A stretch of 64,000 bases of DNA from an uncultured Gammaproteobacteria bacterium (GTDB taxonomy: Bacteria > Patescibacteriota > Patescibacteriia > UBA9934): NCBI GenBank assembly GCA_964552565.1, contig CAZKGL010000001.1:119649-183648 (forward strand). Reading direction: 5' to 3'. The position numbers and the translations under genes were made by a program. Positions 20,954 through 54,483 of this stretch are shown here, piece by piece (position 1 is the first letter of the stretch; every line of letters begins with the position of its first letter). A model generated the notes under the pieces. The model saw nothing but the letters and a program-made list of their open reading frames with translations. It did no database searches and was not told the origin of the DNA.

Positions 20954-23900
20954 ATGTCACGCTTCCGACTTCGCCATGTCCTGCCATTCCTCGCCGGTCT
21001 TTCCTTGATCGGCGTGTTGGCGTTTACGCCGGACCTTCTTGCGCAGAGCGAAAGCCTGACGGAGGTCGGCGATGCATCGGGTCTCGGCAGCGAGGACCCG
21101 CGTATCATCATCGCCAACATTATCCGGACGTTCCTGACGGTCCTCGGCGTTCTTGCGGTGCTCATCGTCCTCTACGGCGGCTGGGTGTGGATGACGGCGG
21201 GCGGGAATGCGGAGAAGGTCGAGAAGGCGAAGAAGATCCTCATCCGCGGCGGTATCGGCATCGCGATTATCCTCATGTCGTGGGCCATTACGACGTTTGT
21301 CATTACGGCGCTTCTTGATTCGACCGGCGGGAGCGGCGGGAGCGGCGACGACAGCGATGGTTCGGGCGGCGGCGTCCTCGGCGGCGGCAGTACGACGAGT
21401 TTCAGCGTGACCGACTACTCGCCGGAAGGCGCGGTGTCCATCCGCAACGTCCAGCTGCGCGTGACGTTCTCAAAGACGCTCGACGACGAGACGGTCGAGG
21501 GCAACATTGTCGTGACGAACGCGTCGAGCGGGGAGGCAGTGGACGGCGCCATTACCGTCAGTGGGAACAAGGCGACGTTCGTCCCGAGCGCGGCCTGCCC
21601 GTCGCCCAACGAAGACCGTTCCTGTTTTGACGCGGACACGGAATTTACCGTGACGGTTTCGGAAGCCATCGAGAGCTCCTCCGGCACTGCGCTCACCTGC
21701 GGCGCGGACGACTGTACGTCGAGCTTCACGACCGGCAGCCTCGTCGATACCGAAGACCCGGTCGCGGAAATCACGGATCCGGAGCGCGGCGACGGGGTCG
21801 AGGCGGGCAGCGTGGAGACCATCCAGGTCCATGCGACCGATGACACGGAAGTCTCCGGAGCAGATTTTTCGCTCGATGAGGAGGAATTCGATTCGGTCGG
21901 CGCGGAAGGTGACGACTTGAGCGACGTGACGATTGAATCGACGTGGGACACGACCGAACTCACGGTGGGGCAGGACTACGAAATCTCCGTGACGGTCACG
22001 GACATCGCGGGGAACACGGATGGCGTTTCCGTCGACGTCACTGCGCGGGGCGCGTGGTGCTTTAACGACGAGATCGACGAGGAATACGGAGAAACGGGAT
22101 TGAACTGCGGCGGCGACTCGTCGAGCGCGGAGTATTGCGGCGCATGCGACGGTTCGAGCTGTACCGAGGATTCAGAATGTTCCAGCGGCAGCTGTGTCGA
22201 CGGCGTCTGTACCACCTTGCCGGAGATCGAGAGCGTCTCGCCGGGCAGCGGCGCGGTCGGGACGTACGTCACGGTCAGCGGCTCCGGCTTCGGCACGAGC
22301 ACGGGGACGGTGGCGTTCACATCGGAGGACGGGACCACCACGGTCGAAGCCGACATCCCGTCGTGCAGCGACGGCTGGTCGGACACCGAGATCGTCGTCG
22401 AGGTGCCGGAGGGCGCGGGCGACGGCCCGATTACCGTGACGACGGACGATGACCTTTCCGACGCGACGGACGATGACGCGGGCGCGCTCATCGACGATTT
22501 TGACGTGAACGATACCGAGCGGCCGAAGCTATGCTCGCTCTTCCCGGACGAAGGCGAGTCGACCGACGGGACGACGCTCTCCGGTTTGGACTTTGGCGAC
22601 GAGCAGGGGAGCTCGACCGTGTCGTTCGGGACGTCCGCCGCCGGCTCGTATACGAGCTGGGAAGACACGTCGGCCAGCGTCACCGTCCCGGCCTTGGAGG
22701 ACGGTGAGTATGACGTGGTCGTGACCGTCGATGGCGTCGAGTCGAACGCGGTGACGTACACCGTGGAAGAGGACACGACCGGCGACCCGGTGATTACCGG
22801 CATCGACCCGTCCGAGGGCGCGGTCGGCGACTACATCACAATCAGCGGTGAAAACTTCGGCATCCTCGTCGGTACCGTCCGTCTTGTCGACGATGCGGGC
22901 AACGAGGCGGTCGCTGAAGTCGATTTCCCTGAGGAATGCGCGGAGGACTATTGGGAGCCGACCGAGATCACCGTCATCGTCCCGGAGGAGTATCAGAGCG
23001 GCGACGGGCTCAGTGCCGGCGCGTTTGACGTGTACGTGGTGACGCAGGAGGGCGCCGAATCGGACACGACGAGTTTTACCGTCGAGGACGGCGACCCGTC
23101 GCCGGGTATTTGTGCGATTGATCCTGACGTCGGCCTCGCGGGGACGTCGGTAACGATCTATGGCGAGCGCCTCGGGTCTGACGAGGGTTCGGTCGCGTTT
23201 TACGACGAGGACGGCGACGTGGCCGCGACGGTCGACGAAGACGGTTGGTCGAGCGATGCAATCTCGCTGACGGTCCCAAGCGGGGCCGAGACCGGCCCGG
23301 TGACGGTGACGTCGTCTGCGGGCGATGAGAGCAACAGCATTGATTTTGAAGTCTCCGATGCCGGCGCTGCGGAAACCGAGACGGAGCCGGCATCGTACGG
23401 ATGGTACTTCTCGACCGGCGAAATCCCGGAGACCCCGGAGCTGCTTGTGGAGTGTTCGGACGACCGCATCAGCGGCGTGCCGAACAACCGGTTCACGTCT
23501 GACGGCGTCTGCGTGGAGGCAATGGTGTACGGCGAATTCTCCACGGTCATGAACGAAGGGTCGATCACGGACGCGCTGACGGTGGAAATGTGTACTGCCG
23601 CCGGCGAACAGCCGTGCGACACGACGACCGACGTCACCGGCGACGGCACGCTTGAGGTATCCTCGTCGACGACGAGCACGACGTTCAGCTGGTCACCGTC
23701 GTCGACCTTTACCGCAGACACGACGTATCGAGTAACCGTCTCGACCGCCGCGATGTCGGACGAGGCGCAGGCGCTCGACGACGACGTATCGTGGGAGTTC
23801 ACGACCGCATCGTCCTCGGAGACGTGCGAGGTCGACACCGTCCATGTCGTTCCGAGCGCGGCGACGATTACCGAACAATACGCGACCGAGCAGTTTACCG

Positions 23901-26900
23901 CGGTGCCCGCCGACGGCTGTGTCGTCGTCGACGGCGACGACTATACGTGGGACTGGTACGTCTACAGCGGCGTCGCAAACCTGACCAGCGACGACGAGTG
24001 CGCGGGCGGCACGACCGACTGCACGCTTGTTGAGGCGCTTGCGGAGGGCGAAGCGGATGTCATCGCGGAAGAAACCGCAAGCACGACGAGCGGCCAGGCA
24101 GACCTGACCGTGGCGTTTACCGATCCGTACGTCTCGGATTACTGGCCGGATTGCGACCAGGCGTGCAGCAACGGCGAGATCGGGGCGAGTTTCAATACTG
24201 CGGTCACGAGCACTTCGCTCGAAACCGACGGCCGCGTCGAACTGTACGAATGCGACAACGAGCTCTGCGCGGTCGGTCCGGCGGACGAGTACGGGTCGTA
24301 TGACGTGGTCGCGACCGATTGCGACGACGATGACCCGTCGTTGTGCGCGGGGGTGGCGATTTCACCCGATGCGGAGCTGACCCCGGGGACGTATTACCGC
24401 GCCGTCATCAGCCGTCGCGTGGAAACCCCGAGCGGCGTTTCGTTGACGCGCACAAACTACGATACCGGCTTCTCGTGGGTGTTCCGGGTGATGGAGGGCG
24501 ACGCGACGTGCGCCGTCGAACGCATTGAAGTGACGCCGGTCGACGCGGTTGCGGACGCCATCGGCGACCGCCAGACCTTCACGGTCGACGCGTACGGCAC
24601 GCCGGACGCGTGTTCCGTCGCGGGCCAGCTCTTGTCCGCATCGGACTACGACTGGTCGTACGGCGCATGGTCCGACGACGGGAGCGACGCGGCAGTCGAT
24701 GTCGCGGATTGGTGGGATGTCGGGTCTTCGAGCGGTTTTGTCGACACAAGCATCGAAGACGTCCCGGAGGGCTGCACGGCCTCGTGTATCCCGTCCGGCA
24801 GCACGGCGCTCGACGCCGTGTGCGGCGATGGAACCGTGGACAGCGACGCGGGAGAAGAGTGCGAAGACGGGAACACCGCGGACGACGACGGGTGTTCGTC
24901 GAGCTGTCTGTATGAAGGGTCGGAGACGACCTGCGGCGACGATGTCGTCGATACGTACGAGGAGTGCGACGACGGCGGAATCGCGGACGGCGACGGATGC
25001 TCCTCCGTCTGTCTGAACGAGGGGTCCCGCGCGATCGGCACGACGTGCGGCAATGATGACGTCGCATACGAAGCGGACCAGGGCGGCGAGGATTGCGACG
25101 ATGGCAACGTCGTGAACGGCGACGGATGCTCCTCCGTCTGTCTGAACGAGGGGTCGCTGACCCTCACCGATGTTGGCGGCGCCGTGTGCGGCGACCTCGA
25201 TATTACCGAGCCGTACGAAACCTGCGATGACGGCGGCACGACGGACGGCGACGGCTGCTCGTCCAACTGCACCCGCGAAGGCGCGGACGGCAGCTACGGG
25301 ACCTGCGGCAACGACAGCACGGAGCAGGGGACGTACGGCGAAGGCGAGGATTGCGACGGCGAAGAATGGTGCACGGATTCCTGCACGTACGGCGGATCGT
25401 CCGTCACGTACTCCGAGCCCTCGTTCTGCGGCGACGGCACGGCCGGCCTCGGCGAAGTGACCGCCTGCGAATCGTCGGGCGGCGACGACAACACCGACTC
25501 GCTCCAGCTTGCGTACATTACCGACGACGCTGCACAGGAGGTCGATACGGACACGAACGTCGCGATTGCAACCGTCACGGTGACTGAGCCCGAGTCCGGC
25601 CTTTCGACGGACGTGACGTACACGCTGGCGTGTTCCGCCGCGACCGACACGGACTGCTCGGATCCGGAAACGTATGGCGTCGGCCTCGGGAACTGCTGCA
25701 TTGCGCGCCCGACCGCGACCCTGTACCCGAACGGCACGGATGCCTGCCGCAACGCGGCGATCTACGGCATCTTCACCCAGGAGATGGACCTCGGCTCGTT
25801 CAGCGTCACCGACACGGACGGCGACACGACGCCGCGGATGTACCTCGTGCTCGACACCTCGACGACCGACGACGGCGCGTGTCCGTACGACGACGAGCTC
25901 GCATGGCTCGGCGAGGACTCTTGGATTGCGGAGACATGGCTGCGCATCCGCCGCATCGTGACCGGCCACGCCGCGGAAGCGGCGCCGGGCGAGGACGAGT
26001 GCGTCCTGCCGGTGTCGAGTTACGCCCAGGAAGCGCAGGACGACGGGACGTTCAAGGTGCGGATGCGCTACGGCGAGGCGCTCGAGGCGGACGTGACCTA
26101 CACGCTGCGCATTGAGGTCGACAGCGACAACACGGACACGAGCAAGGACGGCGTGCTGTCCGCGGACAATGTCGCCATGTACGACGCCGACGGCGTGATT
26201 GAAGAAACATTCTCGACCGGCAGCGAAATCTGCACGCTCGACAGCGTTGTTGTGGAAGATACGGACGACGAGAGCCCGTATTACTTCTCGCAGTACGGCG
26301 AGGAGCATACCTTTACGGCAACCGCGTACTCGTACAACGGCTCGACCCGCCAAGAGCTCGAATCCATCGACGATGTCTACTCGTGGACGTGGTCGAGCTG
26401 GGAGGAGGAGGCGAGCGAGTCGGTCGTGGATGTCGCGCAGAGCACGACCACGGGCACTGAGGACGAAGCGGCGGTCGAGGCGACCGGCGAAAACGGCGAG
26501 GCGGTCATCGTCGCGACCGCTACCATTGAGGACGACGTGGTCGGCGACAGCGAGGGCGAGGAGGTGACCGGCTCGGAGGATGTCGTGGTCTACCTTTGCC
26601 AGAATACGTGGCCGGACATTACGGCGACCGAATTCCCTTGGAGCGACGACGAGGACGGTATTGATAACGGCGCGGAAGAGGGGAACGGCTGGATGAACTT
26701 CTCGACGTACTTCTGCCGCGACAGCGGGGAAGCGGACGACACAAGCGACGACCTGCCAGGCGTCAACGTCGTGTATGCAACGGATTACTCGAGCGCCGAC
26801 GACATCCTGAAGGAGTATCTCTTCGAGGTCGACGACGGCAGCGGGGACGCGATCGGCTTCCGTATCGTGTCGAATTCCGAGTACTTGGGCCCGGAACAGT

Positions 26901-29900
26901 GGTTTGAGGCCCAGGGCTTCTCGGGTTCGCCGCAGACGACCACCATCGACGGCTTCCAGGCGGTCACCGATGGCCGCACGACGTACGTCGCGGCGCCGAA
27001 CCAGTCGGACACCTCGCTGTACTCGAATATCTACGTCATTTCGTACAACGAAGGGGCGAGCGAGGAAACGACCGACCTGTACGACCAGATCCTCGAAAAC
27101 ATCTCGTTCGCCATCAACGTCGACAACGACTGCGACGCGGAGGACGGCGAAACCTGTACGGACGCATGGAGCACGCTCCAGCGCGACACGAAGCGCCTTG
27201 CGGACCTCACGACGGTCGCCGCGCTCGTTGAGACCTATGTCGACGAGAACGGCGTCGTGCCGCCGCTGTCGTCCGGTACGTACGTCCGGAGCATGGGGTC
27301 AAGCGTCTGGGATTCGTGGGGCGACCTGCTCGGCGCGGCGCTCGGCGACTCCGATCTGCCGACCGACCCGCGCAACACCTATGACGGCTGCGGCGCGGAT
27401 CCGTTCGCGTCCTACGACGAGGATACGTGCGTGAACGAAACCGCCGGCCAGTACCTCTGTCCGGAAGGGTCGTACGCCTACCATTACCGCGCGGTCGGCA
27501 CCGACGGGGTCACGCTGTATGCGGACCTCGAGTATGACGATGCGGCATGGGTGAACCCGATCGACGCCGATACGTCGGACGACATCGACTACGAGGTGTA
27601 CAGCGCCATGAGTTCCGGCGACGGCTTTACGTCGACCGCGTTCTGCGACGGCTCCTCGAGCGGCGGCACCGTGTACGGCTCGACCGGTTCGTGCGGCGAC
27701 GGCGTCGTGAACACGAGCATCGACAGCGACGGCGACGGCACGGCGGACACGGTGGAGACGTGCGAGATCGGCGAGTCGGGCGGTACTGCCGAATGGTGCG
27801 ACAGCGACCTTGCGAGCGACGGCGACGGGGACGGCGATCCGCTCAACGATTGGGACGGCTCGGTGAGCCAGACCTGCAACAGCGCCTGTACCGGCTGGAC
27901 CGACGACAGCGACGCCGAGTGCGTCCTGTGGTCATGCGGCGACGGCGTCGTGGACACCACCGACGGCGAGGAATGCGACGACGGCGCGCTGAACGGGCAG
28001 TACGGCTATTGCAGCAACACCTGCTCGTACGACGACGCGTTCTATTGCGGCGACGGGTCGCTTGCGGGCAGCGAAACCTGCGACTGCGGAGCGCCGGGCG
28101 AGAGCACGATCGTCGACCCGACGCAGTCGCGCCCCTACGGCGGCACGAGCTATAGCTGCGTGACGACCGAAGGTAACGGCACCTACGACGAAAATCCGTA
28201 CAACACCTGCGCATGGGATTGCCAGGGCCCGGCGTCGTACTGCGGCGACGGCGTCGTCGACAGCGGCGAAGAGTGCGACGGCGACACCGAGCACTGGGAA
28301 GGCAAGCTCTGCAATCTGTACTCCACTGCGGATACGTTCGGCCAGGCGTGCGAGACGGACGCGGATTGCGAGCGGTACTCGGATGCATCGCTGCCGAACG
28401 CCTTGTGCGGCGACGCGAGCAACGACGACTTCGAGGCGTGTCCGGAAACGACGGTCTGCGTCGCGGGCACCACAAGCCTCATCGGCACGGAGTGTACGGC
28501 CGACAGCGACTGCGGGACCGACGGCGCCTGCTCGGACATCGCCTACCAGACCTACCGCACCCGGACGTGCGAGGACGACGGTGCGAGTGGGGAAACGTGC
28601 GACTGGGACGTCCCGTCCCTCGGCCTCTACGGCATCTCGTGCACGGCACTCGGGAGCTGCGGCGACGGCACGGTGGACGACAATGAGGAGTGCGACGACG
28701 GCAATGACGATTCGACCGACTCGTGCACGAACGAGTGCACGGACAATGTCTGTGGCGACGGGTACCTCTACGTCGGCGAAGAGCAGTGCGACGAAGGGAC
28801 GGAAAATGGACAGGGCTGCAGTTCGAGCTACGAATCGACCTGCACATCCTGTTCGGAGACGTGCCGGTACGAAACGTCGTCCGGCGACTTCTGCGGCGAT
28901 GGCGAGATCAACGGCGACGAGTACTGCGACGCCTACGCCATGCCGTACCAGTATGCGATCAGCGTGACGTACGATGAGGCCGAATCTGAAGACGACTTCA
29001 ATCCGTTCGCCGGCGAGACGGTCGTGTGGACGTATGGCGACTCCTGTGACACGCTCGGTGAGACCGTTATCGATTATGCGGACGAGTCGGACGAGTCGGA
29101 TGTCACCTACACCTGTTCCATGATTGGGTACTGTAACGGCGGCGACAGCAGCTACGGCGGCAACGGCGACGAGTGCTTGACCGACTCGGACTGCGATGAA
29201 GGCGACTGCGTCATGACCGTCTGCGCGGATGATTGCGACAACACGTGCCCGGAGACATACGAGTCCACCGCGCTCCTCCTCACCGCGGAGCAGCCGGGCG
29301 CGACCGCAGAGACTGCGGTCGACCTGTACACGTACTCCGACAGCGGGGAAGCGGAGGTGCCGAACTCGGCGACGATCACGTTCCCTGCCTGTACCATCGC
29401 GTCTTCGCTCGTTGCGGACATCTCGATGGACAACGTGGAACTGACCGAGTACTACATCGTCTTCGTGACCGACACGTCGGGATCTATGGATGACAGCTTC
29501 GATGGTTCCCAGACGTCCGGCGTCCCCGTCGACGAGCAGCGTATTACCGCCGCGGTCGACGTGCTCCGTGAGGCGATCCAGAGCCTGTACGATGCAAGCG
29601 AAAACATGCATATCGCGCTCGTGCAGTATGACGACACTGCGTACGAGGAAACGTCCGGCGACGGCGGGCCGACGGCATTCACGGACGCCGACCAGGAATC
29701 CAACCTTCTGTCCACCATCAACAGTTACTACGTTGCGGGCGGCACGACAGAGACCGACGACGGCCTTGCCATGGCGAAGGCGCTCCTCGACAGCGAGGCG
29801 TCGGACCGCACCTCGAACGTCCGGAAAATCATCGTCCTCCTCTCGGATGGGGAAGAAAATAGCACGTCCGATGCGGGAAGCGTGGCGGACGAGATCAAGG

Positions 29901-30316
29901 CCGTCGACCTCGACGAGGACGGCGTGGACGATTACGAGCTCTACACCGTCGCGCTGACGAGCGTCGACACGCTCATTACGACCATGAACGGCTGGTCGAG
30001 CAATAGCGGGAGCGCGCTCGCATCGAACAACATCGACTACGCCTACGACGGCGACACGGAAGATGAGCTTGAAGACTCCTACGAGGACATCGTCGCGTCC
30101 ATCGCGCAGCCGACCATCGCCATCATCTCGTCCGACGGCTCGACGACCTATACGACGACCGACGAGTTTGAAGAGGGTTCCGGGGTCGACTTCCCGTGGC
30201 CGGAAGGGTTCTCGTGCGACCAGGACGACGAACAGGAGCTGCCGATCCGTATTACGTTCCCGGGCGAAGGCACGATCGAAATCAGCAATGTCCGGTTCGA
30301 GTATTGCGCCCCCTAG
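20954..30316 (+). CDS. giant surface adhesin-like protein (3120 aa): T4SS-pilin-like N-terminus, 4 IPT/TIG domains, Cys-rich DUF4215-like repeats, C-terminal vWA domain
   Basis: N-terminus is paralogous to the previous gene (WVWMTAGGNAEKVEKAKKIL). IPT/TIG modules at about 22.2-23.4 kb (VSPGSGAVGTYVTVSGSGFG). CGDGxVDxxEECDDGNxxxGDGCSSxC repeats at about 24.8-25.5 kb and 27.7-28.9 kb. MIDAS DTSGSMDD vWA domain at about 29.45-30.0 kb. Confidence 0.75.
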   Translation: MSRFRLRHVLPFLAGLSLIGVLAFTPDLLAQSESLTEVGDASGLGSEDPRIIIANIIRTFLTVLGVLAVLIVLYGGWVWMTAGGNAEKVEKAKKILIRGGIGIAIILMSWAITTFVITALLDSTGGSGGSGDDSDGSGGGVLGGGSTTSFSVTDYSPEGAVSIRNVQLRVTFSKTLDDETVEGNIVVTNASSGEAVDGAITVSGNKATFVPSAACPSPNEDRSCFDADTEFTVTVSEAIESSSGTALTCGADDCTSSFTTGSLVDTEDPVAEITDPERGDGVEAGSVETIQVHATDDTEVSGADFSLDEEEFDSVGAEGDDLSDVTIESTWDTTELTVGQDYEISVTVTDIAGNTDGVSVDVTARGAWCFNDEIDEEYGETGLNCGGDSSSAEYCGACDGSSCTEDSECSSGSCVDGVCTTLPEIESVSPGSGAVGTYVTVSGSGFGTSTGTVAFTSEDGTTTVEADIPSCSDGWSDTEIVVEVPEGAGDGPITVTTDDDLSDATDDDAGALIDDFDVNDTERPKLCSLFPDEGESTDGTTLSGLDFGDEQGSSTVSFGTSAAGSYTSWEDTSASVTVPALEDGEYDVVVTVDGVESNAVTYTVEEDTTGDPVITGIDPSEGAVGDYITISGENFGILVGTVRLVDDAGNEAVAEVDFPEECAEDYWEPTEITVIVPEEYQSGDGLSAGAFDVYVVTQEGAESDTTSFTVEDGDPSPGICAIDPDVGLAGTSVTIYGERLGSDEGSVAFYDEDGDVAATVDEDGWSSDAISLTVPSGAETGPVTVTSSAGDESNSIDFEVSDAGAAETETEPASYGWYFSTGEIPETPELLVECSDDRISGVPNNRFTSDGVCVEAMVYGEFSTVMNEGSITDALTVEMCTAAGEQPCDTTTDVTGDGTLEVSSSTTSTTFSWSPSSTFTADTTYRVTVSTAAMSDEAQALDDDVSWEFTTASSSETCEVDTVHVVPSAATITEQYATEQFTAVPADGCVVVDGDDYTWDWYVYSGVANLTSDDECAGGTTDCTLVEALAEGEADVIAEETASTTSGQADLTVAFTDPYVSDYWPDCDQACSNGEIGASFNTAVTSTSLETDGRVELYECDNELCAVGPADEYGSYDVVATDCDDDDPSLCAGVAISPDAELTPGTYYRAVISRRVETPSGVSLTRTNYDTGFSWVFRVMEGDATCAVERIEVTPVDAVADAIGDRQTFTVDAYGTPDACSVAGQLLSASDYDWSYGAWSDDGSDAAVDVADWWDVGSSSGFVDTSIEDVPEGCTASCIPSGSTALDAVCGDGTVDSDAGEECEDGNTADDDGCSSSCLYEGSETTCGDDVVDTYEECDDGGIADGDGCSSVCLNEGSRAIGTTCGNDDVAYEADQGGEDCDDGNVVNGDGCSSVCLNEGSLTLTDVGGAVCGDLDITEPYETCDDGGTTDGDGCSSNCTREGADGSYGTCGNDSTEQGTYGEGEDCDGEEWCTDSCTYGGSSVTYSEPSFCGDGTAGLGEVTACESSGGDDNTDSLQLAYITDDAAQEVDTDTNVAIATVTVTEPESGLSTDVTYTLACSAATDTDCSDPETYGVGLGNCCIARPTATLYPNGTDACRNAAIYGIFTQEMDLGSFSVTDTDGDTTPRMYLVLDTSTTDDGACPYDDELAWLGEDSWIAETWLRIRRIVTGHAAEAAPGEDECVLPVSSYAQEAQDDGTFKVRMRYGEALEADVTYTLRIEVDSDNTDTSKDGVLSADNVAMYDADGVIEETFSTGSEICTLDSVVVEDTDDESPYYFSQYGEEHTFTATAYSYNGSTRQELESIDDVYSWTWSSWEEEASESVVDVAQSTTTGTEDEAAVEATGENGEAVIVATATIEDDVVGDSEGEEVTGSEDVVVYLCQNTWPDITATEFPWSDDEDGIDNGAEEGNGWMNFSTYFCRDSGEADDTSDDLPGVNVVYATDYSSADDILKEYLFEVDDGSGDAIGFRIVSNSEYLGPEQWFEAQGFSGSPQTTTIDGFQAVTDGRTTYVAAPNQSDTSLYSNIYVISYNEGASEETTDLYDQILENISFAINVDNDCDAEDGETCTDAWSTLQRDTKRLADLTTVAALVETYVDENGVVPPLSSGTYVRSMGSSVWDSWGDLLGAALGDSDLPTDPRNTYDGCGADPFASYDEDTCVNETAGQYLCPEGSYAYHYRAVGTDGVTLYADLEYDDAAWVNPIDADTSDDIDYEVYSAMSSGDGFTSTAFCDGSSSGGTVYGSTGSCGDGVVNTSIDSDGDGTADTVETCEIGESGGTAEWCDSDLASDGDGDGDPLNDWDGSVSQTCNSACTGWTDDSDAECVLWSCGDGVVDTTDGEECDDGALNGQYGYCSNTCSYDDAFYCGDGSLAGSETCDCGAPGESTIVDPTQSRPYGGTSYSCVTTEGNGTYDENPYNTCAWDCQGPASYCGDGVVDSGEECDGDTEHWEGKLCNLYSTADTFGQACETDADCERYSDASLPNALCGDASNDDFEACPETTVCVAGTTSLIGTECTADSDCGTDGACSDIAYQTYRTRTCEDDGASGETCDWDVPSLGLYGISCTALGSCGDGTVDDNEECDDGNDDSTDSCTNECTDNVCGDGYLYVGEEQCDEGTENGQGCSSSYESTCTSCSETCRYETSSGDFCGDGEINGDEYCDAYAMPYQYAISVTYDEAESEDDFNPFAGETVVWTYGDSCDTLGETVIDYADESDESDVTYTCSMIGYCNGGDSSYGGNGDECLTDSDCDEGDCVMTVCADDCDNTCPETYESTALLLTAEQPGATAETAVDLYTYSDSGEAEVPNSATITFPACTIASSLVADISMDNVELTEYYIVFVTDTSGSMDDSFDGSQTSGVPVDEQRITAAVDVLREAIQSLYDASENMHIALVQYDDTAYEETSGDGGPTAFTDADQESNLLSTINSYYVAGGTTETDDGLAMAKALLDSEASDRTSNVRKIIVLLSDGEENSTSDAGSVADEIKAVDLDEDGVDDYELYTVALTSVDTLITTMNGWSSNSGSALASNNIDYAYDGDTEDELEDSYEDIVASIAQPTIAIISSDGSTTYTTTDEFEEGSGVDFPWPEGFSCDQDDEQELPIRITFPGEGTIEISNVRFEYCAP

Positions 30317-33759: not shown

Positions 33760-35016
33760 ATGGCAGATGGTTCCATCGTAGGTCTGGATATCGGTTCCGC
33801 AACGGTGCGTGTCGCCGTTGCCCAGCCGTTGCCGGGGGAAGACGGAAAGCCGCGTTTGCATATTATTGGCGCGGTTGCTTTGCCGTCTGCGGGTGTCCAT
33901 CGCGGCACCGTGTCCAGCATGGAAGATGCGGTTTCGGCCATTTCGAAGGTATTGGAGCGCGCCGAGCGCATGACCGGCGTCCCGCTGAACGGGGCGTGGG
34001 TGTCCATTGCGGGGCAGAACATCTTGGTACAGGAGAGCCGAGGCGTGGTCGGGGTGACCCGGCCGGACGGGGAGATCCGCGAAGACGACGTCGAGCGCGC
34101 CATGGAGGCGGCCCGTACGGTGGCGACCCCGTCGAACTACGAGATTTTGCACGTTATCCCAAAGAGTTTTACGGTCGACGGCCAGCGTGGGGTCAAGGAT
34201 CCGGTCGGCATGAACGGCATCCGTTTGGAGGTGGACGCGGTTATCATCCAGGCGCTTGCGTCGCATATTAAAAACCTCACGAAGAGCATCTACCGCACCG
34301 GCCTCGACATTGAGGACCTTGTATACGCCCCGCTGGCGACCGCGGAGGCCGTCTTGACCCAGCGCCAGAAGGAGCTCGGCGTCTGCGTGGTGAATGTCGG
34401 CGCCAGCTCGACCACGCTTGCGGTGTTTGAGGAAGGCGACCTTATCCACACCGCGGTCCTGCCGATCGGCGGCGATCGCATTACGTCGGACGTGGGGACG
34501 CTCCTGCGGGTCCCGCCGGAGATCGCCGAGAAGGTAAAGCTGACCTATGGCCACGCGGTGCCGGACGCGGTCGACCGAAAACACACCTTCAGCCTGAAGG
34601 AGTTGGGTGCGGACGTCGACGAGGTGGTGAAGCGACGCTTCATCGCCGAGATTATCGAATCGCGCGTGGAGGAGTTGTTCGAGGCGGTCGACGCCGAGCT
34701 CCGCAAGGTGGACCGGTCGGGCATGCTTCCGGTCGGCGTCATGCTGACCGGCGGCGGGGCAAAACTCGACGGTATCGTCGACGTCGCCCGGCGGGTGCTG
34801 CGGCTGCCGTGCGCCCTTGGGGCGCCCGTCGGCGTGTCGAGCGTCATCGACGAGGTACACGACCCGGCGTTCGCAACCGCTATCGGTCTGGGGGTCTGGG
34901 GGTACACCATCAAGGGGATGCATACGAGCAAGTTCGGGAATTTGTTTAGCAAGTTCAAGTCGGTCGACAAGGTGGCTGAGCAGATCGGGAAGTGGTTCAA
35001 GTCGCTTGTTCCATAG
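33760..35016 (+). CDS. ftsA: cell division protein FtsA
   Basis: Actin-fold N-terminus VGLDIGSATVRVAV, 418 aa, immediately upstream of ftsZ. Confidence 0.9.
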   Translation: MADGSIVGLDIGSATVRVAVAQPLPGEDGKPRLHIIGAVALPSAGVHRGTVSSMEDAVSAISKVLERAERMTGVPLNGAWVSIAGQNILVQESRGVVGVTRPDGEIREDDVERAMEAARTVATPSNYEILHVIPKSFTVDGQRGVKDPVGMNGIRLEVDAVIIQALASHIKNLTKSIYRTGLDIEDLVYAPLATAEAVLTQRQKELGVCVVNVGASSTTLAVFEEGDLIHTAVLPIGGDRITSDVGTLLRVPPEIAEKVKLTYGHAVPDAVDRKHTFSLKELGADVDEVVKRRFIAEIIESRVEELFEAVDAELRKVDRSGMLPVGVMLTGGGAKLDGIVDVARRVLRLPCALGAPVGVSSVIDEVHDPAFATAIGLGVWGYTIKGMHTSKFGNLFSKFKSVDKVAEQIGKWFKSLVP

Positions 35017-35046
35017 CCGGGGTCCCCGCACCCCGGCTTGCCGTTG
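35014..35046 (+). terminator. terminator hairpin (AGCCGGGG-loop-CCCCGGCT family) overlapping the ftsA stop codon
   Basis: TAGCCGGGGtccccgcaCCCCGGCTT. The stop codon TAG is the first 3 nt of the stem. Confidence 0.55.
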
Positions 35047-35067
35047 CGCAATCGTGCTCCGCGGGCC

Positions 35068-35155
35068 GGGTCCTGCCGCCTTCGCACCCTGTTGGGTGCT
35101 CGACTCGTCGGACTCGTCTGCGCGCCCAAGCAGGGGACCTGCTCGGCGTCACCCG
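35068..35155. repeat. 88-bp REP-like element, family B (copy 1)
   Basis: Identical to 37155..37242 (direct). Contains the imperfect hairpin CCTGTTGGGTGC...GCGCCCAAGCAGG. Confidence 0.75.
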
Positions 35156-35377
35156 GCCACCCTTCTCTTCGACGGGCCCGATATCTCAGCGTCATGCCCA
35201 CCCGCTTTTCCCGAATTGGGGAGGAGGGGGAGTTTTTTATACGCACAGTTCATCCACAGGCATTCGTGGAGGGTTGGGAGGGGGTGTGTTAGGCTGTGAG
35301 TACAAAATTTATCTGAGGTCAGCGAAATTGAATACATAAAGTGTTCAGTGAGAGAGGCGCGTGAACACCAAGTTGGT

Positions 35378-36649
35378 ATGGCGGAGTTCAAACCGGAAAT
35401 CGAAACAGCAGCCAAGATTAAAGTCGTCGGGATCGGCGGTGGCGGGGGATCGGCGCTCATGCGCATGATCGCCGAGAAGCTCCGCGGGGTGGAATTCATC
35501 GCCGTGAACACCGACGCCCAGGCCCTCCACCAGAATACGGCTCAGGTAAAAATCCCGATCGGGAAGACCGCGACCCGCGGCCTTGGTGCGGGCATGAACC
35601 CGGAGGTCGGCCGGCGCGCCGCCGAAGAGAACGCGAACGACATCCGCACGGCGATCGCCGGTGCGGACATGGTGTTTTTGACCTGCGGCCTTGGCGGCGG
35701 CACCGGGAGCGGCGGCGCGCCGGAGGTCGCCAAGATCGCCCGCGAGGTGGGTGCGCTGACGGTCGCCGTGGTCACCAAGCCGTTCGGTTTCGAAGGCGCC
35801 CAGCGCAAGCGCATTGCCGATGACGCATACCTCGAACTCGCCGAGCACGTCGACACGCTCATCACCATCCCGAACGACCGCGTGCTCCAGATCATCGACA
35901 AGAAGACGTCGCTCCTTGAAGCCTTCAAGATCGTTGACGACGTGCTCCGCCAGGGCGTGCAGGGGATCTCGGAAATCATCACCATCCCCGGCCTCATCAA
36001 CGTCGACTTCGCGGACGTAAAAGCCATCATGCAGAACGCCGGTTCGGCGCTCATGGGCATCGGCCGCGCCTCCGGAGAAAACCGCGCGGTGGAGGCGGCA
36101 AAGCAGGCAATTGCGAGCCCGCTCCTTGAGATCTCCATCGACGGCGCCAAGGGCATCCTCTTTACCGTCACTGGAAGCTCGGACCTCGCCATGTACGAGG
36201 TTGCCGAGGCCGCGAAGATCATTACCGGTTCCGCGGACGACGACGCCCGCGTCATTTTCGGCGCCAACGTCGACGAGAGCCTTGAGGACGAAGTGCGCAT
36301 TACGGTCGTCGCAACCGGCTTTGACAGCCGCGACCACCGCCGCGCCCCGTCGCTCGCCGGCGACGTCGAGGTCGCGCCGCAGGGGAGCTGGAGCGCCCCC
36401 CGCCGCGACGACTATCGTTCCGCCCCCAGCCGGAGCAGCAGCTATATGGCGCCGAAGGAGTCGCCGTTTGGCGAGCGCCGCGTTCCGTCTGCCGCCTCGG
36501 CCATAACGCCCGTCGCACCGCCTCCGGTCCGCGAGCCCCTGACGGCCGCCGAAGAGAGGAAGCCGGTCGCTCCCGCGCCGCAGCCCGCCCAAAAGGAGGA
36601 AGACGATGAGCTCGGCATCCCGGCGTTTATCCGTCGCAAGATGATGTAA
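35378..36649 (+). CDS. ftsZ: cell division protein FtsZ
   Basis: KIKVVGIGGGGGSALMRM tubulin signature and the T7 loop. Pro/Ala-rich C-terminal linker ending in the conserved IPAFIRRK peptide. The start is taken at the ATG of MAEFKPE. The track GTG at 35348 is an alternative. Confidence 0.95.
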   Translation: MAEFKPEIETAAKIKVVGIGGGGGSALMRMIAEKLRGVEFIAVNTDAQALHQNTAQVKIPIGKTATRGLGAGMNPEVGRRAAEENANDIRTAIAGADMVFLTCGLGGGTGSGGAPEVAKIAREVGALTVAVVTKPFGFEGAQRKRIADDAYLELAEHVDTLITIPNDRVLQIIDKKTSLLEAFKIVDDVLRQGVQGISEIITIPGLINVDFADVKAIMQNAGSALMGIGRASGENRAVEAAKQAIASPLLEISIDGAKGILFTVTGSSDLAMYEVAEAAKIITGSADDDARVIFGANVDESLEDEVRITVVATGFDSRDHRRAPSLAGDVEVAPQGSWSAPRRDDYRSAPSRSSSYMAPKESPFGERRVPSAASAITPVAPPPVREPLTAAEERKPVAPAPQPAQKEEDDELGIPAFIRRKMM

Positions 36650-36651
36650 CT

Positions 36652-37128
36652 GTGTACTGCCCGGTTTGCAACGCGAAATCCACGAGGGTCATCGATTCGC
36701 GCCTGACCGCGGATTCGCTTGCCATCCGCCGCCGCCGCGAGTGTGAGCGCGCAAAATGCGGATTCCGGTTCAGCACGGTGGAAGAGATCGAATTACTCGA
36801 TGTGACGGTCGTGAAACGGAACGGCCGCCGCGAGTCGTATTCGCGGGAAAAGATCGAATCCGGGCTGAAGAAGTCGCTCGAAAAGCGTCCGCACACCGAC
36901 GCGCAGTTCCGCACCCTCGTTCACACCATCGAGCGCGACATCCAGAAGCGCCGCGGCGCGGAGATTACGAGCAGGGATATCGGAGAGATCGTCATGGACC
37001 GTCTGCGCGCCTTCGACAAGGTTGCGTATATCCGCTTTGCGTCGGTCTACTCGTCGTTCGAAGATGTCGGAATGTTCGTCCAGGAGTTGAAAAAGCTTGG
37101 CGCGGGAAATAAAAAGCGGAAAAAGTGA
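36652..37128 (+). CDS. nrdR: transcriptional repressor NrdR
   Basis: MYCPVCNAKSTRVIDSR zinc ribbon plus an ATP-cone domain. Confidence 0.9.
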   Translation: MYCPVCNAKSTRVIDSRLTADSLAIRRRRECERAKCGFRFSTVEEIELLDVTVVKRNGRRESYSREKIESGLKKSLEKRPHTDAQFRTLVHTIERDIQKRRGAEITSRDIGEIVMDRLRAFDKVAYIRFASVYSSFEDVGMFVQELKKLGAGNKKRKK

Positions 37129-37154
37129 TATACTGCAGATAAGGAATATGCGTC

Positions 37155-37242
37155 GGGTCCTGCCGCCTTCGCACCCTGTTGGGTGCTCGACTCGTCGGAC
37201 TCGTCTGCGCGCCCAAGCAGGGGACCTGCTCGGCGTCACCCG
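37155..37242. repeat. 88-bp REP-like element, family B (copy 2)
   Basis: Identical to 35068..35155. Confidence 0.75.
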
Positions 37243-37261
37243 ACGCTTGCACCGTTCCAGT

Positions 37262-38665
37262 ATGGAATTCAGGAGGACAAAAATCGTGTGCACCATCGGA
37301 CCGGCGTCATCGAGCCCCGGGATGTTGGTGCGGATGTTGCGCGCCGGTATGGACATGGCGCGTTTGAATTTTTCTCATGGCACCCACGAGGACCACGCGC
37401 GGCTCATCCGCGCCGTCCGCGCCGCGTCCCGCAAGGCGGGGAAGGCGGTGGCGATCCTCCAGGACCTCCAGGGCCCCAAGATCCGCGTCGGTGATCTCCC
37501 GAAGGACGGCGTCGTCTTGCACAAGGGCGAACACATCACGCTGACGACCGAAGACCGCGCCTACGAAACGGACGGCCCTATCCCCGTGACGTACCACCGG
37601 CTCCACCGCGACGTCGCGAAGGGCCACCGCATCCTGTTTGACGATGGGACGATTGAGGTCGAGGTCGCCAAGGTGCGCGGCAAGCGCATCACGGCGCTCG
37701 TGAAGGTGCCGGGGACGCTGAAGTCCCACAAAGGCATGAACCTGCCGGACTCCGAGGTGAGCGCCGACCCTTTTACGACCAAGGACCGCGAGGACCTGCT
37801 CTTTGGCGTGGCGCAGGGCGTCGACTGGGTGGCGATGTCGTTCGTGTCATGTGCCGACGACATCATGACCGCCCGCGCCGTTGCGCGGAGCGCCGCCCGG
37901 GCCCATGGCGTGCGCACCCCACTCATCTTCGCAAAGATCGAACTGCGCAGCGCGCTTGACCGGTTCCCCGAGATCCTCGAGGCTGCGGACGGCATCCTGC
38001 TCGGGCGTGGCGACCTGGGCGTCGAAATTCCGCCCGAAGAGGTGCCTATCGTGCAAAAGGACGTTGTCGAGGCCTGCCGCCGGGCGGGGAAGCCGGTCAT
38101 CGTGGCCACGCAGATGCTCAACTCGATGGTGGACAACCCTCGTTCGACCCGCGCGGAGACCTCCGACGTCGCCAACGCCGTGTTCGACCACACCGACGCG
38201 GTGATGCTCTCTGCCGAATCCGCGACCGGGCGTTATCCCGTCGTCACCGTGCAGGCGATGGCGGCGGTCATCCGCGAGGCCGAGCAATCACGATACGACG
38301 ACATCGCCCACATCTGCGTGACCGTCCCTGGGCTCGAAGAGGCGATGGCGCAGACCGTGCACGTCCTTGCCGCGAGCGGGATTATTGGCGCCGTGGTTGC
38401 GGTGGCGTCGCACGGCGATCTCGCGCGCAAGCTGAACATGTACCGTCCGTCCGTCCCCATCTACCTCGTGACGCCCGACCCCGCGGTCGCCCGCCAGTCG
38501 GTCGCGTTTGCCGGGGTGACGCCGCTCGTCATGGACGACGCGGCCGGGAGCTTAGCGGCGCGTGTCCACACAAAAGTCCGCCGCGAGCGGCTGGTGCCGC
38601 GCGGCGCGGCGATTGCCCTCCTCACGGGTTCGGTCCCGCACACGCAGCTGAGTATTCTCCGCTAG
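37262..38665 (+). CDS. pyk: pyruvate kinase
   Basis: KIVCTIGPAS...MARLNFSHG...MVARGDLGVEIP motifs. Alternative start at the GTG at 37286, which has a perfect AGGAGG 8 nt upstream. Confidence 0.9.
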   Translation: MEFRRTKIVCTIGPASSSPGMLVRMLRAGMDMARLNFSHGTHEDHARLIRAVRAASRKAGKAVAILQDLQGPKIRVGDLPKDGVVLHKGEHITLTTEDRAYETDGPIPVTYHRLHRDVAKGHRILFDDGTIEVEVAKVRGKRITALVKVPGTLKSHKGMNLPDSEVSADPFTTKDREDLLFGVAQGVDWVAMSFVSCADDIMTARAVARSAARAHGVRTPLIFAKIELRSALDRFPEILEAADGILLGRGDLGVEIPPEEVPIVQKDVVEACRRAGKPVIVATQMLNSMVDNPRSTRAETSDVANAVFDHTDAVMLSAESATGRYPVVTVQAMAAVIREAEQSRYDDIAHICVTVPGLEEAMAQTVHVLAASGIIGAVVAVASHGDLARKLNMYRPSVPIYLVTPDPAVARQSVAFAGVTPLVMDDAAGSLAARVHTKVRRERLVPRGAAIALLTGSVPHTQLSILR

Positions 38666-39470: not shown

Positions 39471-39559
39471 AGAGGGACGAGTGGTGCGTCGTTGGGCGGA
39501 GACGTCTGCGCCCAGCCGCAGTCGCGCAGTTGCGGAGCACAACGACGTACCCGAGTCCC
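39471..39559. repeat. palindromic REP/MITE-like element, family A (copy 2, 89 bp, inverted)
   Basis: Reverse-complement match to 17844..17953. Confidence 0.7.
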
Positions 39560-39837: not shown

Positions 39838-40013
39838 AGTGAAAGAAAAATGGTAAAGAGTGTCGAATTCGGGTTGACGCTCGTCCTGCGCCACGCCCGC
39901 GGTGCGTTTATCATAGCACGAGAAATGGCTAATCTCAGATATTGCGGACGATCGTGTGGATAATCGATCCGTGGCCGAAAATAATTGACAGCCTCGACAA
40001 CGCCGGATAGGTG

Positions 40014-40055
40014 GATGTCCTGAAAAACTCACGATCGTGAGTTTTTCAGGACATC
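40014..40055. terminator. 42-bp perfect palindrome (terminator of the gene at 40054..40245)
   Basis: GATGTCCTGAAAAACTCACGA|TCGTGAGTTTTTCAGGACATC. Confidence 0.7.
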
Positions 40056-40245
40056 AACGGTATTTGTTTTCCGGCGGGGGAGGGACGTTGCCGCCTTCGC
40101 GCCGGGCTTCCGAGAGCCCGATGGCGATCGCCTGGCGAGGGTTCGTGACCTTCTTGCCGCTTTTGCCGCTGTGCAGCTCGCCACGTTTCATCTCATGCAT
40201 TTTCTCTTCAACCTTTTCTTGGGCCTTCTTTCCGTATTTTGCCAT
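40054..40245 (-). CDS. hypothetical small basic protein (63 aa)
   Basis: Lys-rich (MAKYGKKAQEKVEEKMHEMKRGELHSGKSGKK...). Followed by a perfect palindromic terminator. Confidence 0.4.
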   Translation of the reverse strand: MAKYGKKAQEKVEEKMHEMKRGELHSGKSGKKVTNPRQAIAIGLSEARREGGNVPPPPENKYR

Positions 40246-49980: not shown

Positions 49981-49982
49981 GG

Positions 49983-50166
49983 CCTCGACTCGGAGGGGAC
50001 CGACGGTACGCAGTACGCTGCGTCCGTCGGTCCCCCACCCGACAATCTGAAATCATGTTACGCAAGTGCCGAATGCTTCGACACTGCCGTAGCCTGGTTT
50101 CGCGAGTAAACAGGTGAACGTCCTTCGGGGCGTTGTGACTGCAACTCGCATCGGTCCCACAACAAC
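49983..50166 (+). repeat. duplicated ~180-nt terminator + leader element (copy 1)
   Basis: Near-identical to 50755..50936 over the first ~120 nt and about 75% identical over the last 60 nt. Begins with a long GC hairpin, GGGGACCGACGGTACGCAG..CTGCGTCCGTCGGTCCCC. Confidence 0.7.
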
Positions 50167-50221
50167 CTGTCACGTGACCGCTAACGTGACATCACCGGCC
50201 TTTGGCCAAAGGAGCATTCCC

Positions 50222-50746: not shown

Positions 50747-50754
50747 AGGCGCAG

Positions 50755-50936
50755 CCTCGACTCGGAGGGGACCGACGGTACGCAGTACGCTGCGTCCGTC
50801 GGTCCCCCACCCGACAATCTGAAATCATGTTACGCAAGTGCCGAATGCTTCGACACTGCCGTAGCCTGGTTTCGTGAGTTACAGGTGAAGCATCCTTCGG
50901 GATGTTGGCTGAAACTCACATCGTTCCCACAACAAC
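50755..50936 (+). repeat. duplicated ~180-nt terminator + leader element (copy 2)
   Basis: See 49983..50166. Confidence 0.7.
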
Positions 50937-50990
50937 CGCCCCGCATCCTACGCGCGGCACAACCGGCCTCAGGCCAAGGAGGAGAAGGCC

Positions 50991-51941
50991 ATGCGCCTGA
51001 TCCCGATCACCACCATCCTCGCCGCCTGCATCTTCGAGCAGGCCGACGTCCAGCTCGACGACGAGAGCCCGGTCACGGAGACCCCGTGGTCGGCCTCGGA
51101 GGGCGAGGACGACGACGGCGCCGACGACGGCGACGGCGGCGAGGGCACGTCCAGCACCTGGTACTTCGACGGCGACGGCGACGGCTTCGGCCTCACCTCG
51201 TCGGCGGTCACCGGGTCCAAGCCCTCGGACAGCACGTCCTGGGTGACGATGGGCGGCGACTGCAACGACGCGAGCGCCTCCATCAACCCCGACGCCACCG
51301 AGATCGCCGGCAACACGGTCGACGAGGACTGCGACGGCATCCTCGACAACGAGGACGGCTCCACGAGCTACTCGTACTACGTCGACAGCGACGGCGACGG
51401 CTACGGCAGCACGACCACGGTCACGTCCGACTCGTCCACCCCGGCGTCCGGCCAGTCCACCCTCAACACGGACTGCGACGACACCGACTCCAGCGTCTAC
51501 CCGGGCGCCACGGAGACCACGGACGGCGAGGACGACGACTGCGACGGCAGCGTCGACGAGTCGAGCTCCGGCTCGAGCACGTCGACCTCGGTCGAGGTCT
51601 GCTACCAGCCGCTCTCCGGCTCGAGCACGTGGACGGGCTACGCCTGGACCAACAACCCGTGGAACCAGACCTACTGGTTCGCGTCGGCCTACGCCTCGGC
51701 GTCGGGGACCACGAAGTCGTGCGGCTCGGCCCTCGGCTACGTGTCCGGCGCCACCGTCGAGATCAACGGGCTCAACCCGGACGGCGACTACATGGTCGGC
51801 GCCTGCGACGGCAGCACCTACGCGGCGATGTCCTCGGACGGCACGAAGTGCATGTTCGCGTACATCTGGGTGAACGGGACGCTGCTCGGCAGCTCCCACT
51901 TCTCGTCGGACAGCTACGACGCGAAGTACACCCTCCCGTAG
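50991..51941 (+). CDS. lipoprotein with MopE-like putative metal-binding repeats
   Basis: Lipobox LAAC. Repeats of DGDGxG...CNDxDxxxxPxAxExxxxxxDEDCDG. Confidence 0.55.
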   Translation: MRLIPITTILAACIFEQADVQLDDESPVTETPWSASEGEDDDGADDGDGGEGTSSTWYFDGDGDGFGLTSSAVTGSKPSDSTSWVTMGGDCNDASASINPDATEIAGNTVDEDCDGILDNEDGSTSYSYYVDSDGDGYGSTTTVTSDSSTPASGQSTLNTDCDDTDSSVYPGATETTDGEDDDCDGSVDESSSGSSTSTSVEVCYQPLSGSSTWTGYAWTNNPWNQTYWFASAYASASGTTKSCGSALGYVSGATVEINGLNPDGDYMVGACDGSTYAAMSSDGTKCMFAYIWVNGTLLGSSHFSSDSYDAKYTLP

Positions 51942-51948
51942 GGTCCAC

Positions 51949-52075
51949 GGCGAGGGGGCGACGTGCAGCAATGCGCGCCGCCCCCGACCAACCCAACGTA
52001 ATAAGAAGAGAGATCCTATCAATGAGTGAACTGCTCCGAGCGTTCATTCATCCGTGGGATCTCTCTTTGTTTTCG
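51949..52075 (+). repeat. conserved ~125-nt 3' element (copy 1)
   Basis: Matches 56050..56170. Terminator GGGGGCGGCG..CGCCGCCCCC plus a long-range hairpin AGAGAGATCC...GGATCTCTCT. Confidence 0.65.

Positions 52076-52284: not shown

Positions 52285-54483
<2,199 letters not shown>

Follow-up and report, generated by a model that had tools for sequence, protein, structure and literature searches.

Repetitive extragenic palindromic (REP) sequences and their doublets, the REPINs, are mobilised by RAYT tyrosine transposases, and two REP superfamilies, tagged GTAG and CGTC, extend across phyla (Di Nocera et al. 2013, PMC3733652). In these superfamilies a short tag is common across phyla, occasional in-frame intragenic copies encode 20-30 amino acids, and for the CGTC class no dedicated transposase has been identified (PMC3733652). 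Rickettsia palindromic elements (RPEs) are selfish palindromic DNA of ~100-150 bp in a small genome, which is found in intergenic regions and also in-frame in unrelated protein genes, where it is translated and tolerated. [quoted passage not shown] Here we describe B1 and B2, two identical hairpin-forming repeats that bracket the genes ftsZ and nrdR in a stretch of 64,000 nt (the window; contig CAZKGL010000001.1, positions 119,649 to 183,648) from an uncultured bacterium of the Patescibacteriota. B1 and B2 are likely two recent insertions of short non-coding, hairpin-forming mobile DNA of the same general kind as REP/REPIN, MITEs and RPEs, and a role as dedicated regulators is unsupported for the copies in the window. 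The family to which they belong works like REP/REPIN, RPEs and MITEs, yet it has neither the GTAG tag nor the CGTC unit of REP/REPIN, and no direct target duplication, parent insertion sequence or RAYT was found for it.

The repeat pair B1/B2 and the syntenic loci of relatives

B1 and B2 lie on the same strand as direct repeats. They are identical at 89 of 89 positions, and the identity ends exactly at either border of the 89 nt. The original prediction, made from the sequence, had described 88/88 identical direct repeats; identity and orientation were right, the length was one base short. Its gene names (ftsA, ftsZ, nrdR, pyk) are correct, both repeats are structured and, by conventional gene calls, intergenic as it had said, and the hairpin arms CCTGTTGGGTGC..GCGCCCAAGCAGG and the tandem GACTCGTC-G-GACTCGTC that it had named are present in each. 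The two copies and their parts are listed here; R1 is a covariance model built from 38 family members.

35067..35155, + strand: B1, hairpin element copy (89/89 identity with B2; fold; covariance model R1)
35068-35154, + strand: family core of B1, GGGTCC...CACCC
35064-35066 and 35156-35158, + strand: flanks GGC and GCC of B1, which lengthen the stem by 3 bp
37154..37242, + strand: B2, hairpin element copy (89/89 identity with B1; fold; covariance model R1)
37155-37241, + strand: family core of B2
37150-37153 and 37243-37246, + strand: flanks GCGT and ACGC of B2, which lengthen the stem by 4 bp and are unlike the B1 flanks in sequence

The joint chance of the outer arms of both copies, estimated from base composition, is ~1e-4. 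A 47-nt core (≤3 mismatches) occurs twice in the window, which has a GC content of 63%, compared to 0 occurrences expected from 100 shuffles. No third copy was detected in the 64 kb by low-stringency BLAST (word size 7) or by the covariance model with filters off. The 89-nt repeat folds as one long imperfect hairpin, with -53.4 kcal/mol (z -2.6) for the + strand and -56.3 kcal/mol (z -3.3) for the - strand; the B2 fold has -57.3 kcal/mol (z -2.9). R1 scored B1 at 66.3 bits (E 3e-12) and B2 at 72.5 bits, both copies being part of its training set. The folds of B1 and B2 agree with the covariation-backed consensus structure of the family, and the apical motif GGTGCTCG...TCTGCGCGCC is present. 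Every family-invariant position is found in both copies, and both carry exact versions of the conserved ends, which lie on one strand with 55-80 nt between them and read GGGTCCTGCCGC(C) and C(C)GGCGTCACCC. An independent Logan assembly of run SRR12113420 contained identical ftsA and ftsZ-nrdR. Its contigs end inside the repeat at three of the four junctions, which is the behavior expected of a de Bruijn assembler at a true repeat. No record of the exact pyk protein with start 37262, which would bear on the fourth repeat junction, was found.

Comparison with relatives and a count of copies elsewhere, both proposed by the original prediction, proved to be appropriate tests. The nearest FtsZ relatives are 82-87% identical, and the named matches (72-75%) belong to Candidatus Uhrbacteria and Patescibacteria. 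Eight syntenic loci from relatives (L003-L010) were compared, all of which retain the order ybeY-dagK-ftsA-ftsZ-nrdR-pyk. Neither BLAST nor the covariance model found the element in these loci, and it is missing at both sites in all eight. In the five relatives whose loci reach pyk the nrdR-pyk gap measures 32-33 nt, compared to 133 nt in the window. The ftsA-ftsZ spacer varies from ~190 to 590 nt among the relatives, with a hairpin and T-run after ftsA and a conserved block before ftsZ, and B1 is placed in the variable middle of this spacer. The absence of the element from syntenic relatives indicates a lineage-specific insertion at both sites.

A hairpin family in at least a dozen phyla

GTDB species-representative genomes were searched with the end pattern GGGTCCTGCCG-N55-80-CGGCGTCACCC, the ends of the element being GGGTCCTGCCGCC ... 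CGGCGTCACCC. The pattern matched at least 114 loci or stretches. Among the matches listed, ~90% of the loci were true relatives by covariance model, and a single closed hairpin fold was present in 97 of 119 matches. R1 recovered 104 places in 100 of the listed loci (E≤1e-3) with family scores between 33 and 85 bits, and several of the genomes contributed 3-5 copies each to the matches listed. A few odd matches in cultured actinomycetes were not recovered by R1 and are read as chance matches. The carriers are metagenome-assembled genomes of Omnitrophota, Acidobacteriota (Vicinamibacteria and others), Actinomycetota, Planctomycetota, Nitrospirota and Dormibacterota, and further of Rokubacteria, Krumholzibacteriota, Chloroflexota, delta- and gammaproteobacteria and Patescibacteria (Saccharibacteria, Kerfeldbacteria, Levybacteria). 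The family is thereby present in at least a dozen bacterial phyla.

Family members have near-invariant ends, (C)GGGTCCTGCCGCC ... C(C)GGCGTCACCC(G). The basal helix consists of GGGT paired with ACCC, a 2x2 mismatch (CC/TC), a T.G wobble and GCCG/CGGC. An inner stem of free sequence follows, and the apical part reads GT(G/C)CTCG - variable hairpin - CTGCG(C/G)GC. The end positions are invariant in 96 of 96 aligned members, as are C20 and C85, which are not forced by the search pattern. Beyond the 22 bases that the pattern does force, C20, C85, a flanking C/G pair and two apical motifs (CTCG, CTGCGC) are invariant or nearly so. In the consensus hairpin 83% of cells are paired, and the covariation score was 0.296, compared to 0.113 after shuffling and at most 0.137 when the partners were slid. 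These compensatory changes indicate that the hairpin is maintained in the family. In a Nitrospirota subfamily (L032, L034, L116, L123) a conserved inner segment, CGGCTTCGGCTGCGAAGACTGGCCTCTAGGCG, replaces the usual apical motif.

Just outside the conserved ends, the flanks are complementary to each other in most copies, while their sequence differs from copy to copy. A perfect outer extension of at least 4 bp was found in 57 of the 119 copies among the matches listed, compared to 0 of 119 in a shifted control, and it reached up to 31 bp. Pairs of the closing stem, P1, were changed on both sides in 23-45 of 96 sequences. One Dormibacterota genome contains five copies with near-identical cores and five unrelated arms of 7-10 bp. 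In Omnitrophota nzgw324 and in Vicinamibacteria (31-nt arms), the arms are common to several copies, which indicates that arms travel with the element in some lineages. Copies are also nested. At 4040-4300 of L097 (Dormibacterota MFD09603.bin.2.40) four left and four right ends surround one core in an onion-like manner, a layer being GGGTCCTGCCG-GGCGAAGCAGCCC ... GGGCTGCTTCAGTCCTT-CGGCG(T/C)CACCC, and several copies in Nitrospirota and Kerfeldbacteria have an extra partial left end 24 nt upstream. Three features are unusual for small palindromic repeats: ends of 12-13 nt that do not differ between any of the copies retrieved from the various phyla, palindromic flanks specific to each copy, and the onion-like nesting. 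Together they point to a structure-directed mobilisation mechanism.

Several copies lie in-frame inside real genes, in either orientation, namely in pheT, in a DegT aminotransferase gene and in the linkers of E2 acyltransferases. In pheT of a Saccharibacteria genome the copy accounts for a 28-aa insert that is absent from most of 14 aligned homologs. The PheT homolog P0125 carries a diverged copy of this insert, and three others have unrelated inserts at the same site. The diverged element-encoded peptide in P0125 indicates an old insertion in pheT that evolves as a coding sequence. An in-frame copy also lies in the gene of a DegT-type aminotransferase of Nanosyncoccus, and the flexible linkers of E2 acyltransferases carry copies in three lineages (Actinomycetes, Solirubrobacterales, Omnitrophota). 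We noticed that the loop in the B5 region of PheT has differing insertions across Saccharibacteria lineages (P0125, P0132, P0148, P0222).

Both strands of the element fold about equally well, the bottom strand slightly better, and a G.U versus A.C asymmetry test gave no top-strand preference as an RNA-level signal. A conserved gene neighbourhood was not found: clustering of open reading frames (ORFs) around ~110 family loci gave only housekeeping families, and an E2 cluster in this analysis turned out to consist of the intragenic copies. Five open-frame translations of B, used as one query, had no match among 5.8 billion proteins, which indicates that B has not been captured elsewhere as spurious ORFs. 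The end pattern had 0 matches in 2.9 million viral contigs and B had none among the PLSDB plasmids; these searches thus give no evidence for a phage or plasmid vector. Rfam 15 gave no match at E≤5 over positions 34900-37400 of the window. With eight family loci (E≤1) it gave only generic hairpin or miRNA-like noise far below the gathering scores. A published description of the family was not found in a non-exhaustive literature search, in which the end sequences retrieved only unrelated primers and aptamers. The literature on REP, REPIN, RPE and MITE that was searched contained nothing on this family.

Like REP/REPIN, the family consists of short, GC-rich, non-coding palindromic repeats that form larger hairpins, lie mostly just downstream of genes and occur several times per genome. 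It likewise has a short conserved sequence common to several phyla and occasional in-frame copies within genes. Unlike REP, it has no GTAG tag. CGTC is found as a tetranucleotide within the right end, CGGCGTCACCC, without the published architecture of a CGTC unit, which consists of the tag, a stem of 8-9 bp that begins with A/T pairs, a loop of 4-5 nt and a CCA tail (PMC3733652). Where a REP/REPIN unit has 20-40 nt, a terminal GTAG or CGTC tag and an inverted doublet, B has ends of 12-13 nt each that pair across an insert of 55-80 nt, and its flanks are copy-specific inverted repeats. No RAYT/Y1 transposase is encoded within the 64-kb window. The likeness to RPEs lies in behavior only, namely in the in-frame copies in pheT, DegT and E2 genes. 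RPEs are limited to Rickettsia and relatives, whereas the B family is found in a dozen phyla or more. To our knowledge, copy-specific palindromic flanks and nested layering have not been described for RPEs. With MITEs the family shares small size, terminal inverted repeats, fold-back structure, lack of coding capacity, nesting, and insertion close to genes, where transcription or translation can be affected. MITEs differ in having direct target-site duplications and a parent insertion sequence with matching ends, neither of which was found for B. Moreover, the B ends are conserved in an asymmetric form (TCCTG versus TGACG, mismatch, T.G wobble), which is more in line with an enzyme recognising a folded strand than with a symmetric site for a transposase. 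The flanks of B1 and B2 are inverted, not direct; a 2-bp palindromic CG duplication (CG-GGTCC...CACC-CG) is compatible with both and is indistinguishable from element sequence.

Integron attC sites, 57-141 bp long, are imperfect palindromes whose ends are conserved and whose centre is of free sequence; what is recognised is not the sequence but a folded single strand with conserved unpaired bases. The B family is likewise an imperfect palindrome with conserved ends and a free-sequence centre. Unlike attC, it has no RYYYAAC / GTTRRRY end motifs, does not form cassette arrays beside an integrase and has copies inside genes. In yeast mitochondria, GC clusters and byp elements are mobile hairpins of high GC content that spread in AT-rich genomes and enter coding regions too, byp being skipped by the ribosome. 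Similarly, the Saccharibacteria copies have 76-79% GC in genomes of 41-47% GC. The yeast elements belong, however, to another domain of life and are not known to be similar to B in sequence, and for the B family translation through the element is the simpler reading.

Probable insertion of mobile DNA and competing readings

Dispersed copies, several per genome, a conserved and covarying hairpin, absence from orthologous sites, tolerance of in-frame copies within ORFs, copy-specific palindromic flank stems and nesting all argue for a reading as selfish DNA. Such an element would be copied or moved as a folded hairpin, either as single-stranded DNA or as a cruciform, by a mobilising enzyme that acts in trans and would not be encoded in the element. 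The asymmetric conserved basal helix would in this case resemble a recognition site on folded DNA, not a symmetric transposase repeat. Insertion would either target the centre of a short palindrome or a hairpin apex, or make a short inverted duplication of one flank, and each inserted copy would thereby gain a new outer stem. If the whole hairpin moved again, the arms would become part of the unit and accumulate in layers. Accumulation of arms would explain the lineage-specific inner arms, the variable outer arms and the nested copies. As a broader and still doubtful proposal, the family may constitute an undescribed cross-phylum class of mobile DNA hairpins with structure-defined boundaries. 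On insertion, each member would come to lie at the centre of a copy-specific inverted repeat, by palindrome targeting or by inverted flank duplication, and the hairpins would therefore grow in layers and could nest. The enzyme that moves them, possibly a host enzyme or a widely transferred one, would recognise folded single-stranded DNA by its conserved, mismatched basal helix. If this is true, such elements have gone unrecognised as a source of in-frame insertions into proteins and of altered expression in uncultivated bacteria, among them the Patescibacteria with their small genomes. Copies of the family also interrupt short-read assemblies, an example being the Logan contigs, and give rise to spurious or extended ORFs; a family model would thus help annotation of uncultivated lineages.

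A number of observations weigh against the reading of B1 and B2 as insertions of a mobile element. The search pattern itself accounts in part for the invariance of the 11+11 end bases, and copies with 1-2 end changes exist in the same loci. A pattern for the inner hairpin of B, CCTGTTGGGTGC-N10-40-GCGCCCAAGCAGG, had 0 matches in GTDB representatives and JGI metagenomes, and a B-specific three-block pattern had 0 matches in metagenomes. Neither the source species nor the subfamily of B itself is thus present in the GTDB representative and JGI metagenome collections. Direct target-site duplications like those of MITEs are not evident. A transposase or other mobilising enzyme was not among 40 ORFs of the window that were scanned with Pfam, and no recurrent enzyme family adjoins the copies in ~800 kb around family members. 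With respect to the upstream gene, family copies are mildly biased in orientation (38 same, 24 opposite, by crude gene calls), which leaves room for some selection at the RNA level. Finally, the window has only two copies, 2 kb apart, and gene conversion or local duplication is possible for the pair.

The mild orientation bias bears on a regulatory reading, in which the repeats are cis-regulatory RNA hairpins (terminator, attenuator, RNase processing site or mRNA-stabilising 3' structure) that tune ftsA/ftsZ and nrdR/pyk and are selected for this role. REP-type hairpins stabilise upstream mRNA in E. coli (discussed in PMC3733652). The sense-strand RNA hairpins of B1 and B2 are very stable, both copies are co-oriented with the genes, B2 lies almost certainly within a transcript, and copies across the family tend slightly to share the orientation of the upstream gene and to lie near its stop codon. 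However, the element is missing at both sites in all syntenic relatives, and no U-tract follows either copy: the sequence after B1 is GCCACCCTTCTCTTC and after B2 ACGCTTGCACCG, and neither copy was flagged by a terminator scan. In addition, the conserved block with the presumed ftsZ promoter lies downstream of B1, copies of the family have either orientation and are also found in-frame in essential genes, the fold of the bottom strand is at least as good as that of the top strand, and there is no Rfam match. A strong terminator would not be tolerable inside the essential gene pheT, where family members lie in-frame and would be transcribed and translated through. We therefore consider selection for a regulatory role unlikely, and the terminator, attenuator, processing-site or insulator function suggested by the original prediction is not borne out. 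If the element influences expression, this is more likely to be incidental than to be why the element exists, and B1 and B2 should be read as an insertion polymorphism instead of a riboswitch or attenuator of ftsZ or pyk.

The distribution of conserved nucleotides, which are concentrated in internal loops, could also be that of a structured non-coding RNA or a ribozyme-like gene or motif with a variable closing stem P1, of which B1 and B2 would be functional copies. The T.G wobble in every aligned sequence, the conserved asymmetric 2x2 mismatch, abundant covariation in P1 and the inner stems and the wide phylogenetic spread are in line with this idea. It is nevertheless quite improbable, given the in-frame copies within coding genes in either orientation, the nested copies, stability without strand preference, the lack of a conserved gene neighbourhood and of an Rfam family, and the absence of the family from close relatives of the source organism. 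Furthermore, copies within one genome have near-identical cores but unrelated P1 arms, which point mutation cannot yield. The pair could finally stem from a purely local event, either a duplication or a gene conversion between two old hairpins; it would then have no current mobility and be only a recombination substrate around ftsZ-nrdR. B1 and B2 are indeed the only copies in 64 kb, 2 kb apart, direct and 100% identical, and their identity ends exactly where the flank-specific stem extensions start, as a conversion tract might. Yet neither site has an older hairpin of the family in any relative, a tandem-type duplication would also have copied intervening or flanking sequence, which is not seen, and the element has all the hallmarks of a family dispersed at unrelated loci in many genomes. 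The original prediction had taken occurrence at two sites only, together with absence from relatives, as a sign of recent local duplication. The absence from relatives was found, but the element belongs to a widespread family, and insertion of a mobile element consequently explains the pair better than plain duplication. We judge a purely local origin very improbable.

SRP RNA, Y RNA, twister and other ribozymes, attC, Tn3-type inverted repeats and CRISPR were dropped as candidates on sequence grounds. The att sites of an island were dropped as well, ftsZ-nrdR being core and syntenic in relatives.

Gene setting of B1 and B2 and other repeats in the window

All genes around the pair are on the + strand, in the order ybeY, dagK, ftsA (33760-35016), ftsZ (35378-36649), nrdR (36652-37128) and pyk (native ATG at 37262). 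The following features are relevant for the effect of the two insertions.

35020..35041, + strand: terminator-like hairpin GCCGGGGT-CCCCGC-ACCCCGGC with a weak T-run, directly 3' of the ftsA stop codon (from sequence)
35236..35377, + strand: ftsZ upstream block ..CCACAG..GTGTTA.G.TGTGAGTACAAAATTT..AAATTGAATAC-ATAAA-GTGTTCA.. (by-eye spacer comparison of the window with L003, L005 and L007-L010)
37127..37135, + strand: extended -10-like box TGATATACT, overlapping the nrdR stop codon (alignment of the pyk upstream regions of L003-L006, L009 and the window; putative promoter)
37148..37261, + strand: stop-free frame of 38 codons that opens at ATG 37148, includes B2 and leads in-frame to the pyk ATG at 37262, translation MRRVLPPSHPVGCSTRRTRLRAQAGDLLGVTRRLHRSSMEFRRTKIV...

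The hairpin after ftsA was not flagged by a simple terminator scan and is hence terminator-like only; a hairpin with T-run is found at the matching place after ftsA in L003, L008, L009 and L010. B1 starts 22 nt downstream of this hairpin and ends ~80 nt upstream of the ftsZ upstream block. The block spans ~140 nt, is kept in all relatives, and includes CCACAG...GTGTTA(A/G)(C/G).TGTGAGTACAAAATTT as well as, immediately ahead of the start codon, the hairpin TGAA(C/T)AC-N5-GTGTTCA. It likely represents the ftsZ promoter together with a structured leader; a scan found no sigma-70 consensus in it. B1 probably lies outside the ftsZ leader and would occupy a dispensable spacer between the terminator-like hairpin of ftsA and the ftsZ promoter region. 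The original prediction had placed the repeats in the 5' leaders of ftsZ and pyk. This is partly right, as B2 does lie between nrdR and pyk, but B1 is upstream of the conserved ftsZ block.

In several relatives other, unrelated long palindromes are present in the middle of the ftsA-ftsZ spacer, e.g. GTCCGTCCACC...GGCGGACAGAC and CCGCGTACATTTCCTCAC...GTGAGGAAATGTACGCGG (L003 9580-9850, L005 9410-9860, L009 9700-9900, L010 2960-3010). R1 does not match them. In this clade, hairpin elements seem to have landed in the spacer repeatedly. A palindrome of ~100 nt, TTCGGGCCATTTTGGG...CCCAAAATGGCCCGAA, is located between ftsZ and nrdR in L009 (11330-11430). In L003 (11303-11438) a gap of 137 nt precedes an nrdR call of only 116 aa, which has the ATP-cone but lacks the zinc ribbon.

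Upstream of pyk, the relatives L003-L006 and L009 have the box TG(C)TATACT 9 nt before the ATG, without a Shine-Dalgarno sequence, i.e. a leaderless-type arrangement. The window keeps both the counterpart of this box, TGATATACT, and CCAGT-ATG, separated by 117 extra nt that include B2. Judged from this arrangement, B2 is almost certainly part of the pyk transcript as a strong hairpin. Since it lies between the conserved -10-like box and the pyk start, expression of pyk is probably altered, and B2 thus probably forced a change in pyruvate kinase expression. The frame is open from ATG 37148, which sits 12 nt after the -10-like box, via B2 into pyk (MRRVLPPSHPVG...SSMEFRRTKIV), and Pyk may have an N-terminal extension that is encoded largely by B2. 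As an alternative start, AGGAGG at 37272-37277 (tandem rare Arg codons) is a perfect Shine-Dalgarno site ahead of GTG 37286 and could have become a new ribosome binding site for it; the relatives have CGCAGA or AAGCGA at this position. Expression of pyk would probably be rescued by translation from ATG 37148 through B2 or by the AGGAGG/GTG 37286 start. As direct repeats, B1 and B2 are also a potential substrate for recombination, leading to deletion or amplification of ftsZ-nrdR.

The window contains a second family of palindromic repeats, family A, with the ends GGGACTCGGGTGCGTCGTTG...CAACGACGCACCACTCGTCCC.

17844-17953, + strand: family A copy
39472-39559, - strand: family A copy

One family A copy begins at the stop codon of yqeY. 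Its counterpart is located 8 nt past an AAA_33 gene and is without ~22 internal nt. A relationship between families A and B had been considered possible in the original prediction. Family A does not have the conserved ends of B, and its best R1 match (18.1 bits, E 0.077) covers the inner hairpin of A1 only, with none on A2; the suggested kinship is therefore not upheld.

Further repeats were observed in the window. A near-perfect 48-nt palindrome at 40011-40058 has 96% complementary arms and no spacer. A repeat pair at 51948-52075 and 56049-56173 (128 nt, 91%) contains a hairpin with 26-nt arms downstream of paralogous Asp/Cys-rich repeat proteins, and another pair is found at 49982-50167 and 50754-50937 (187 nt, 94%). 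The regions 20954-30316 and 50991-56038 encode a 3120-aa ORF and several downstream ORFs of Cys/Asp-rich repeats (DxDxDG / CDDxD type). Syntenic homologs of the 3120-aa ORF in relatives have weak DUF4215, Big_5 and TIG matches. It is these Cys/Asp-rich repeat ORFs that dominate the repeat content of the window.

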